The notes beneath the pieces are model-generated. The model ran no database searches. It was not told where the DNA came from and worked only from the letters and a program-made list of their open reading frames with translations. A DNA stretch of 56,145 nt, counting the filler, from Jimgerdemannia flammicorona (taxonomy: Eukaryota): NCBI GenBank assembly GCA_003990765.1. It is 2 parts of 2 records of this genome, joined end to end, with 100 filler letters (N's around TTAATTAATTAA, not from the genome) between each part and the next. Parts side by side here need not be neighbours in the genome. Positions count along the whole stretch, not along the records: positions 28,146 to 56,145 come from RBNJ01000587.1; 1 more part is not named here. One strand, written 5' to 3'. How positions within the stretch are numbered: the stretch's first letter is position 1; every line of letters begins with the position of its first letter. This document shows, piece by piece, positions 51,065-53,760 of the stretch. Position numbers and translations under genes: made by a program.

Positions 51065-53760
51065 TTATTCATCCTCTGAATCTGTGGATTGTAATCGCTC
51101 TTCTATAGGATATATGATCCGAGAACTCTTTCCTGTTGGTCTAGAGGGTGTATCCACAATATCACCAAGCGATTTCGTTAATGAAGGATTTGTTAATTGC
51201 AATACTGATGAACGGCTATGTGATCTTTTTAGCATTACAAGCATGCGAAGACTTTCCCCCAGACCTTCCTGTGTGCGCATGATAAGAGATTATTAGTTAG
51301 ATATCCCGAAGAAGGCACACCACACAATATAAAAAATAAACCAACCCCAAGCTGCCACAGAATCGGCAGACATTGCAATAATTGGTCCCGGTCATCGAAA
51401 TGGATTGGGAGCTTGAAAGTTCCCAGCAATGCCATCCTATAAACTCCCTTAACAGGAAGGTCCATCGACCAGATTTCCAAACTGAGACCTAACATAAAGA
51501 AAGTTTTGGTTAGTATACAAGATGTAACAAGTGAACATGAATAACACAATCTTCTTACCATATACGTGAACAAACCACATTTTTACCCTTCTTAAAGTAT
51601 TGAAATCCCCCGAGGCAAGCTTCACCGCACTCTCGTCCACAAGATCTCGGAGACCCAGCACGCCTCGGACATGATCTTTCAGATATCTTGGTCGATCATT
51701 CGTTAGTGGACCGCCCGATATCTCCACGAATCCCACCTCAAGCTCGTCATTGCCGGGTATCTGAAAAATACCATCGACTTTCATTCCAAGAGGTTTGTCC
51801 AAGTCAGGTGTATACCCATGGCGGGCAAGACGTCGGTTTGCACTTGCATGCAAAAAAATCTCTCCCCTGCGGCAAAGCGTATATTGTTCAGCAGGGAAAA
51901 ATGATAGGACATTAATAATAAAGTAAGTGCAGGTACTTTACTCACGGGTAATACAAGAGTCCCCAGGAGTTAACCAAGCGTTGCAAGATGGGATGCACCA
52001 AGAAACAACCGAGAGTAGGTTCTTGCGCACGAGAAGTTTGGAGGGCACTAATTGACTTGAAAATTGTTTCGCAACTAGCAGGGCACAAAGGAAAAATTAC
52101 TCAAAAAATCCAGTACACACATGAAACTATGTGGCGGGTCGGCAATGCTCACCAGAATGTGATAACCTGAAGAAAATAATCATATTCTTTGCATTCATTT
52201 TCAAATTCCCTGTTTTTTTTGACAATGGCCAGGTATTCTTGGTAGGTTTCCTAAGGTATATATAAAGAGTGTCAACAGACGAAATAAGGTTGCCGATGGG
52301 TTTGCACAAATAGATAAACACGATATCACTTTGCTTACCACATCCAATAGCTCGCCAATCTCGACGTAAAATCCAATCAGGCCTTTTTATCCTATGCCCA
52401 ATGCGAATAACCCCAAAATTTGATGGGCTATATAGGAGAAAATATTATATATTTTACAGATACCGCCGAAAAAAGCACGTAAACAAACATACTCACTGGG
52501 CATTTGGTAAAGGTTGTGTCCCTTTAATTGCGTTAGCAACCGATATCCCTGAAGGCAAGATCCAACTACAGGGATCGCTATCCTCCTGTGGAAATGTTTG
52601 GTTCGATTCCGAGCCGATTGTAGATTTTCCTGGGATATCTTCATCATCAAATGGCTCGATGGTTGGGTCAACTTCAAATTCGTCATCATTGAATTCTTCG
52701 ATATCCTCTTTCTCGGCATTGTCTTGCTCTTCCTTGTCTCTTATGCCATTATCATCATCATTTTCATCATCACTTTCATCTTCATGTTGCTGCACTGATT
52801 CCAGATCATACTGTTCATGGGAGAAAACCAGTTAACCAAAATATAAGCAAATTTGTGCCCAACGTAAATAAGGAATATTAACCTCATAAGATATTCGGGT
52901 TCGTTTTGACACGTTTTCTTTACGCGGTAATAAACGCTTCTTAATGTTTGAGGTTGCCGATTTAGCAACTGTTGTCATTTGTTCAGTAACTTCGTTCGTC
53001 AGGACCATTTCGTATTTTTCCTATTGGTGATAAAGCATGATCAGTAACTAGAGGTTTGTAATGTGATGAGTTTAGATGAAGAAATTCACCAGTGATGTTT
53101 GAACAGCCACATCAGCTAGGACGCCGGATCCCCAATATTTGTATATTCGGCCGCCTTTCTTGATATCAGCCTAGGAATATGGAAGACACTGCATGAAACT
53201 AGTTTCTAATTTTCCAGTATTCTCAATAGCAGGGACAACATATTTGAGCGAACGAGCGGGCACTGCTGGCCGTGTACCGACAGATTCCCAGTTAAAAGGA
53301 GAGGGCAGGGCAGGACATGTCCCCCAGCGCTCCCTTCCAACCTTCCAACGTGTTAAAAGACAAACACACGGATAGGACTGCGGCGTTATGCCGTGATCGT
53401 GCGAGGGCTTATAAAGTCTAAGCGTTCCATCAATCACAGTATATCGTATAGGCGAGGGCTAGGTAGGATAAATCCCCTAGCGTTCCCAATACGACCGCCG
53501 CCCGTTCACTAATCGAAAAGGAACTAACTCACCTCATGCTTCTGCAGTGTCTTCGTGGCCGAGATCTTCTCCCGCTCAGAACCATGTAGCTGGAACCATG
53601 AAAGTTGTTTTTTGAGAGCAGCACAAATTCTTCCTTTGGCTAAAGGGAGGCCAGCCGCAACCCAGGATTTGTGATATCGCAGCGGGTCCCAGTGCCGACA
53701 TTGCGTGTTTATCCAGTATTCAAAGCCGATTTCTTTCTGGATTTCTTCTTTGGATATCAT
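51065..53760 (-). CDS. Multi-exon gene, hypothetical protein with acidic linker and C-terminal PD-(D/E)XK restriction-endonuclease-like domain
   Basis: Exon 1 is 53760-53533 (MISKEE...QKHE, donor GTGAGT); exon 2 starts at 53170. Acidic exon 52493-52810. Motif GE....AS..RR...GMKVDG...EVGFVEISGG...KD (ORF 51449..51853), then EIWSMDLP...YRM...LP. CpGs are retained and no stops were seen in the exons read. Confidence 0.75.
53247..53510 (-). ncRNA. Candidate structured RNA element in intron 1
   Basis: A 13-bp closing helix encloses three related hairpins. Wobble pairs are G-U on the minus strand only. Confidence 0.65.

Follow-up and report, generated by a model that had tools for sequence, protein, structure and literature searches.

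The first intron of a multi-exon gene of the fungus Jimgerdemannia flammicorona is a genuine intron that is often not removed from its RNA. The gene lies at 51066–53760 on the minus strand of a 56,145-nucleotide (nt) stretch of assembly GCA_003990765.1, which we call the window, and falls in the part of it that comes from RBNJ01000587.1 (positions 28,146–56,145). All coordinates count along the whole window, and the gene and the structured block within its first intron are both on the minus strand. An earlier note on this DNA had described a multi-hairpin RNA in the intron and had linked it to splicing. The explanation that we favour, tentatively and at slightly less than an even chance, is that intron 1 is a cis-acting clamp that hampers its own splicing and is built round an inserted, locally triplicated GC-rich hairpin cassette. 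Intron 1 probably limits the amount of working mRNA made from the gene.

The gene has nine introns. Exon 1 (53533–53760), with its ATG at 53760 and 76 codons, was delimited by its reading frame and, at its 3′ border, by an RNA joint from 53169 to 53532; its product is identical to the N terminus of the protein P0002. Intron 1 (53171–53532) is 362 nt long and runs from GT to AG, and a spliced joint that skips these 362 nt was present in one of the RNA runs examined, X2. Exon 2 (53090–53170; 81 nt) follows, supported by RNA joints from 53019 to 53089 and from 53019 to 53532 and skipped in one X2 RNA form, and then intron 2 (53021–53089; 69 nt). The earlier note had called intron 1 much longer and more GC-rich than the others, and this held up: the other eight introns measure 69–88 nt with a GC fraction of 0.29–0.45, against 0.55 in the 264-nt block inside intron 1 and 0.36 in the parts of intron 1 that flank the block. 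Folding energy per nucleotide is −0.335 kcal/mol in intron 1 and −0.03 to −0.19 kcal/mol in its sister introns. Without the block, intron 1 would be 98 nt long, near the 69–88 nt of its sisters. When the intron is retained, an in-frame UAG at 53526–53524 (intron positions +7 to +9) ends translation after two intron codons.

Evidence that the intron is kept came from contigs of four public runs (X1, X2, X3 and X11), which we placed on positions 52800–53900 at a likeness of at least 85%. X1 yielded one 2244-nt contig that is unbroken from 53826 to 53089, thus keeping intron 1, and that lacks the 69-nt intron 2, whose plus-strand ends are CT..AC. Past 52883 the loose end of this contig continues with the beginning of exon 4, so that the end of exon 3 is joined directly to exon 4; the contig therefore represents RNA from which introns 2 and 3 had been removed. 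Beyond exon 3 it continues for 1380 nt, which fits the 1284 nt of exons 4–10 plus a short tail, and this length suggests that the later introns had also been removed from the molecule. In X2, which derives from another organism, contigs with intron 1 retained, with intron 1 spliced and with exon 1 joined to exon 3 had depths of 110, 98 and 69, respectively; these are rough means from which isoform ratios are not reliable. The retained and spliced depths sum to about the depth of the exon 2–exon 3 junction contig (199). X3 and X11 each contributed one short, low-depth contig inside intron 1. The proposed link to splicing thus stood in so far as RNA contigs retain exactly intron 1 or skip exon 2, and its further element, autoregulation by the encoded protein, found no support. 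Runs from soil, sediment and rhizosphere, X3 and X11 among them, contain small shares of the stretch, on which we base no view of habitat or copy number.

The GC-rich block (53247–53510; 264 nt) is predicted to fold as a 13-base-pair (bp) closing stem that encloses three hairpins. The arms of this stem, 53498–53510 and 53247–53259, are the 5′ and 3′ ends of the block, and they pair as had been claimed, through 13 bp including two G–U pairs, with pair probabilities of 0.51–1.0 in the context of the pre-mRNA. On the minus strand the block reached −108.9 kcal/mol, compared with −88.0 ± 5.1 kcal/mol for 200 dinucleotide shuffles (z = −4.12; none of the 200 as good), so that the comparison with shuffles, proposed earlier as a check, confirmed the strength of the fold. 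Control windows of 264 nt taken from the same strand between 40 and 56 kb (n = 81) had a mean z of −0.10 with a standard deviation of 1.24 and a minimum of −3.13; none reached the value of the block.

The plus strand of the block folds about as well (z = −4.02). Over 390 nt, z was −3.89 for the plus strand and −3.83 for the minus strand, with 9 and 14 G–U pairs, respectively. The argument that G–U pairs fix the strand therefore failed: the plus strand folds almost as significantly, and the first hairpin, H1, is more stable on that strand. We dropped the count of G–U against A–C pairs as a strand test because the plus-strand fold, too, has its nine G–U pairs, and the strand is set instead by the spliced RNA contigs. 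Equal significance of both strands is what DNA-level inverted repeats would be expected to give, and it counts towards a neutral origin, in which DNA, palindromic for example, was inserted by chance or duplicated locally, its folds are a by-product with no selected role, and the retention follows from an approximately fivefold length and poor signals. We consider this neutral origin somewhat unlikely, and the helices described next, which lie outside the block, are evidence against it.

Exon 1, intron 1 and exon 2 were folded together as a 671-nt RNA; the structures reported here are thermodynamic predictions. In this fold the closing stem is the uppermost of three stacked helices, of 17, 12 and 13 bp, that make up a stalk. 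The block described in the earlier note is thus no more than the upper end of a more extensive predicted structure, to which exon 1 and the intron's 3′ portion also contribute. The outer, 17-bp helix pairs 53538–53554 in exon 1 (−22 to −6 from the 5′ splice site) with 53182–53199 (−29 to −12 relative to the intron's 3′ end), the zone in which the branch point is expected; A53194 is bulged and the pair probabilities are 0.98–1.0. Twelve of its 17 bp form an uninterrupted perfect inverted repeat (I3), which is one of only three perfect inverted repeats of at least 12 nt with a spacer of at most 500 nt in the 56-kb window. The middle helix, present in the minimum free energy structure with probabilities of 0.57–0.84, joins 53512–53523 to 53212–53227 through 12 bp, with a 4-nt bulge at 53216–53219. 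Pairing between the 5′ and 3′ segments of the stalk was worth −27.9 kcal/mol, against −8.8 ± 3.5 kcal/mol for 300 shuffled 3′ arms (z = −5.4; none of the 300 as good). Insertion alone does not predict these long-range helices, with their 12-nt perfect match between exon 1 and the branch zone, and they argue against a purely neutral origin, as do the three basal stems in the hairpins, which differ in sequence and still keep pairing.

The same comparison across the gene sets intron 1 apart. The duplex between the exon tail and the 3′ part of the intron reached −27.2 kcal/mol for intron 1 and −6.8 to −13.4 kcal/mol for the other eight introns. In the zone from −32 to −12, the mean unpaired probability was 0.11 in intron 1, the lowest of the nine, and 0.31–0.72 in the others. 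At the 5′ splice site and in the last 11 nt of intron 1, the unpaired probabilities were 0.65 and 0.80, which makes these sites the most open among the nine introns. As predicted, then, the stalk covers the expected branch-point zone and leaves both splice sites open. Motifs of the form CTRAY occur at −25 to −32 in three of the eight other introns; intron 1 has none, but neither do the remaining five.

Hairpins that sequester splice signals inhibit splicing. In the mechanism that we propose, a 264-nt cassette of three locally duplicated hairpins would have come to sit in an otherwise ordinary, AT-rich intron of about 98 nt. The predicted 13-bp stem would close this cassette and stack on the two long-range helices, in which the first 20 nt of the intron and the last 22 nt of exon 1 are predicted to pair with the 3′ part of the intron. 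The stalk would thereby mask the zone 12–29 nt upstream of the 3′ splice site, where sister introns have branch-point-like motifs, while the cassette and its closing stem would clamp the two sides of the stalk in register. A zone masked in this way may hinder recognition of the branch point, so that intron 1 is kept or exon 1 is spliced to exon 3. Retention of the intron and skipping of exon 2 are both outcomes expected of a masked branch region. On this reading the structure would form in the cell and cause these outcomes, and the cell may make use of the effect.

Within the block, hairpins H1 (53443–53495), H2 (53391–53439) and H3 (53290–53342) all fold as described in the earlier note. H1 has the core GGGAAC-GC...GC-CCUCGCC and scored 71.7 bits with a covariance model of the hairpins; H2 has the same core with a shorter top (46.6 bits); and the core of H3, which was also a training hairpin of the model, is identical to that of H1 at 29 of 38 positions. 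Folded alone, H1, H2 and H3 reached −21.8, −17.2 and −24.3 kcal/mol (z = −3.75, −4.80 and −2.51), with 2, 0 and 3 of 300 dinucleotide shuffles each as good. The pattern GGRRCGC...GCCCTC occurs three times in the 56-kb window, each time inside the block, against 0.00 expected from 100 shuffles, which bears out the claim of a core that is repeated three times and kept. Its description as an internal-loop motif was right about the recurrence; in the predicted fold what was called a loop is a short helix with one bulged base and a 2×2 loop, in which (G/U)G pairs with C(C/A), a bulge follows (G, G and U in the three hairpins), GA pairs with UC, and a 2×2 AC/CC loop precedes GC/GC.

The stems differ in sequence and yet keep pairing, as had been proposed. 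In an alignment of H1, H2 and H3, 95.2% of 62 pair cells were standard pairs, a level reached by none of 500 shuffles (slid controls were 37–51% paired), and both partners change in 10 of the 22 pairs. At the level of sequence and predicted pairing, this alignment shows three hairpins of one design. One detail of H3 did not survive: the CCGUGUG/UACACGG stem said to carry it is complementary, but its pair probability in the ensemble is 0.0 and enforcing it costs 4.9 kcal/mol. On its 5′ side (53330–53352, minus strand) the basal stem of H3 consists of the same 8 nt twice in direct order (GUUGGAAG), a minor sign that sequence inside the block has slipped or been duplicated locally.

A core that recurs three times with its sequence preserved, on stems that vary, would also suit modules that bind a protein, for example in autoregulation by the nuclease, or that belong to a trans-acting, guide or small-RNA precursor or to an editing substrate. 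We rate this group of explanations as very unlikely. A 151-nt metatranscriptome contig that lies wholly inside intron 1 counts in their favour, and it is equally expected from mRNA that retains the intron. Scanning the whole window with Rfam 15 at gathering thresholds gave no match, in agreement with the earlier statement that the block belongs to no recognised RNA family, and at E ≤ 10 over 52500–54300 the only match overlapping the block was mir-1231 on the plus strand, at 18.5 bits against a threshold of 80; no Rfam, small nucleolar RNA or microRNA model thus came near its threshold. A tRNA scan found none. K-turn, H/ACA, C/D box, tetraloop–receptor and similar motifs were looked for informally, by eye, and the core contains neither tandem G–A pairs nor box motifs. 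We saw no sign that a guide or partner RNA is released. Nothing ties the encoded protein to RNA, and the core of H1 may have been deleted in a relative, as described below.

Two positions that differ between samples bear on the editing variant of this explanation, and the consensus fold leaves both of them unpaired. The transcript of the window has G at 53330 and all four other samples have A, which gives H3 the core GGGAAC as in H1. One of the samples with A is a run that is guessed to be DNA, and because the position also differs there, we read it as a strain difference rather than as editing. At 53300, the bulged base of H3, a U-to-C change on the transcript was seen in a single contig of depth 2. 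The idea of an editing substrate was therefore not borne out at either position.

Samples also differed by small deletions and insertions. The retained-intron contig of X2 lacks 12 nt at place 53474, inside H1, and the direction of the deletion is ambiguous. Read as 53474–53485, which is likelier, half of the H1 core is lost and the hairpin weakens from −21.8 to −6.6 kcal/mol; read as 53463–53474, only the tip is lost and H1 retains −13.9 kcal/mol. H2, H3 and the stalk remain under either reading. That a close relative tolerates such a deletion is a further point in favour of a neutral origin. X2 contigs carry an extra T at 53607, within a stretch of A and T in exon 1, and this insertion would put the frame out; X1 contigs lack 11 nt of the 5′ leader (53770–53780).

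Several considerations weigh against the clamp. The plus strand folds about as well as the transcribed one, and all the structures are thermodynamic predictions. The branch point is placed by expectation, and retention could follow simply from the length of the intron or from a weak branch site. The contig depths, as said, are rough. The 12-nt deletion in X2 means that H1 may be dispensable. The paired changes among H1, H2 and H3 are changes among repeats of one molecule and not covariation between orthologues; the basal stems of the three hairpins may be unrelated in origin, and covariation between orthologues is uninformative because the relatives are about 99% identical over the compared stretch. 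Finally, the copy of the gene in the window appears to be frameshifted, which weakens any argument from selection on its regulation. This apparent frameshift, together with the additional T in a relative's exon 1, also counts for neutral debris.

Where the block came from bears on a further alternative, that the intron or the block is a mobile copy, introner-like or of the type of a miniature inverted-repeat transposable element (MITE) or foldback element, whose structure serves or reflects proliferation and not the host gene. We think such an origin unlikely; it would be compatible with a clamp effect. MITEs and foldback transposons are compact, GC-distinct blocks with inverted ends and internal palindromes in repeat-rich genomes, and the block resembles them in these respects, including inverted ends of 13 nt. 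It differs from them in that only 11 of the 13 end positions are Watson–Crick pairs, in that we saw by eye no direct repeat flanking 53510 and 53247 that could be a target-site duplication, and in that no other copy was found. Inverted repeats are thus present without the accompanying target-site duplication that marks a MITE.

Searches for a second copy were made at several levels. With blastn, intron 1 matched the 56-kb window only over 16 nt or less, with no paralogue. The hairpin covariance model, run on the window with filters off, recovered nothing but the three hairpins on which it had been trained and the antisense of each; the hit that came next had an E value of 4.7. Among run contigs at a likeness of at least 85% (one from X1, six from X2 and one from X3), every piece listed was at this locus, one piece not being shown. 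The translated block matched nothing among proteins of 52–167 amino acids, and among longer proteins its sole match was the orthologue P0003, in which the gene model runs on into some of the intron sequence. The core motif matched none of 185,579 prokaryote genomes, and an origin from a bacterial repeat is accordingly unsupported. Two loci with the core motif in metagenome contigs lie in GC-rich, bacterial-looking coding DNA with no wider similarity, and we took them as chance matches. No second copy was therefore found in the window, run contigs, proteins or metagenome contigs, which is weak evidence against a mobile element since the fungal genome itself was outside the search. The GC content of the block, and the near-normal length that the intron would have without it, suggest that it was inserted and then locally duplicated into its triplicate form.

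Two known types of fungal intron share features with intron 1 that count towards a mobile origin. Introner-like elements of Dothideomycetes, as far as the consulted part of their description goes, are longer than other introns, have low predicted folding energy and have canonical splice sites (PMC3609843), and intron 1 likewise has greater length than its sisters, a lower folding energy per nucleotide and GT..AG ends. The many near-identical copies, sitting as introns in unrelated genes, that define those elements (PMC3609843) were not found here in the window, two transcriptome contig sets, proteins or metagenome contigs. Symmetrical sister introns and stwintrons of Hypoxylaceae have terminal inverted complementarity of tens of nucleotides that can zip the ends together, without flanking duplications, according to the consulted portion of the report (PMC8469720), and intron 1 resembles them in this. 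As portrayed there, however, these introns are proliferated families with terminal repeats of 45–55 nt inside the intron, often with a nested intron (PMC8469720), whereas of intron 1 a single copy was found, with one arm in the exon and no sign of a nested intron.

The clamp that we favour has its closest likeness in the zipper stems of Saccharomyces cerevisiae introns of the RPS17B type, in which, according to the consulted passages, a stem of at least 6 bp in a long intron pushes out the inner part as a loop and reduces the distance that separates the 5′ splice site from the branch point (PMC12350175). The rules given in those passages are that the stem starts no less than 10 nt away from the 5′ splice site, ends no less than 20 nt away from the branch point and leaves linkers totalling 42–85 nt (PMC12350175). 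The closing stem of intron 1 has 13 bp and begins 22 nt into the intron. If its branch point is at −25 to −32, the position of the CTRAY motifs in three other introns, the stem would end 45–52 nt from it and the linkers would total 67–74 nt, which would fit the zipper rule. By contrast with yeast zipper stems, which in the same excerpts mostly promote splicing (PMC12350175), intron 1 is often retained. The stem here is also just the middle storey in a stalk of three predicted helices, the lowest of which takes in exon sequence and covers the branch-point zone, what it loops out is a triplicated hairpin cassette, and the host is a Mucoromycota fungus in which introns are normally about 70–90 nt long.

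Autoregulated ribosomal-protein introns of yeast provide a second comparison. The consulted parts of two papers describe structures that inhibit splicing in RPL7B (PMC12311795) and in RPL18B and RPS22B (PMC13232506). As in the cases outlined there, the structure of the intron would control its removal, and the unspliced RNA is non-productive. Unlike those introns, as far as these sources describe them, intron 1 has no known regulator protein and offers no cross-species conservation to draw on, and the element that would be masked is a branch-point zone paired with the upstream exon.

The host gene resembles, by sequence, hypothetical proteins of Endogonales fungi. Its conserved exon is 100% identical to hypothetical proteins of Jimgerdemannia flammicorona and of Endogone sp. 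FLAS-F59071, and P0002 equals the gene model of the window. The family is small, with 46 representatives at E ≤ 0.001 among 1.84 billion proteins; several of its members (P0001–P0047) are fragments. Pfam, applied to the exons and to P0002–P0004, gave nothing at or above its cut-offs. A predicted model of the 289-amino-acid orthologue (predicted local distance difference test score 75.2) aligned in VIA-align with the N-terminal nuclease domain of DrdV (Z = 12.7, root-mean-square deviation 2.6, 141 aligned), followed by BpuSI (Z = 10.1), TT1808 (Z = 8.9) and then many restriction enzymes. Foldseek with the same model returned no match at E ≤ 0.001, the best being 3.9e-3. For the whole 493-amino-acid paralogue, Foldseek found nothing, and the VIA-align result was dominated by an N-terminal helix. 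Across 24 members, with residues numbered as in P0001, an aspartate (D85) never varies and K83, E97, E102, K117, D118 and H119 hardly do; the near-invariant motifs are K-x-D, E...E-x-S-G-G and P-R-Y-x-K-D-H. These comparisons of a predicted model support a PD-(D/E)XK (restriction-endonuclease-like) core fold. The earlier label of a nuclease gene thus stands for the fold of its conserved domain and only at that level.

The reading frame of this copy appears to be broken. Compared with the orthologue model P0003, exon 5 (52339–52427, minus strand) is short of about 22 codons, and the CLQES...QMFS segment of that model is nowhere in the window. The N-terminal half of the gene lies in one frame and the C-terminal half in another, and P0002 is open only by reading through introns. 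The apparent break reflects either a disrupted allele or an assembly error.

Most of the remaining window is repetitive. Regions at about 2000–31000 and 40400–48400 are presumably retrotransposon-derived, with long open reading frames (ORFs) that contain stretches we take to be reverse-transcriptase-, protease- and integrase-like. The dominance of such ORFs points to a repeat-rich genome, as neutral insertion of the block would have it. These ORFs occur in several diverged copies, and paired tandem repeats of 31–32 nt accompany them at 6884, 15399, 15488, 16846, 25466 and 30690–30844. A 19-nt unit is repeated 3.8 times at 53991–54063, about 230 nt upstream of the start codon of the host gene. 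Positions 1–1000, 27000–28000 and 31000–35000 have higher GC and very strong GC skew (−0.59 to +0.52); elsewhere there are A or T runs of 37–56, and 88 N lie within 28046–28145.

Most documented cases of introns whose structure governs their own removal come from the ribosomal-protein genes of budding yeast, and early-diverging fungi that live in symbiosis with plants, such as the Endogonales, have hardly been explored in this regard; titles and abstracts on Jimgerdemannia genomes and Endogonales introns contained nothing on structured introns. Intron 1 offers a compact case, in which a hairpin cassette, a zipper-like stem and a helix from exon to branch zone, all as predicted, coincide with intron retention and exon skipping. 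A bolder version, which we consider distinctly improbable, is that the stalk and the three hairpins form a dedicated riboregulator, with the helix between exon 1 and the branch zone acting as a switch that gates the expression of a potentially harmful PD-(D/E)XK nuclease at the removal of intron 1 and that would be opened or locked by a factor on the GGAAC/CCUC modules, by temperature or by a helicase. If true, this would be a lineage-specific splicing switch made of one RNA module in triplicate, which an introner-type insertion might have seeded. Should the genome hold more copies, this would be a candidate case of a structured element giving rise to introns in Mucoromycota; should it be unique, it would be a natural example of a long insertion accommodated or exploited by RNA folding in a short-intron genome.

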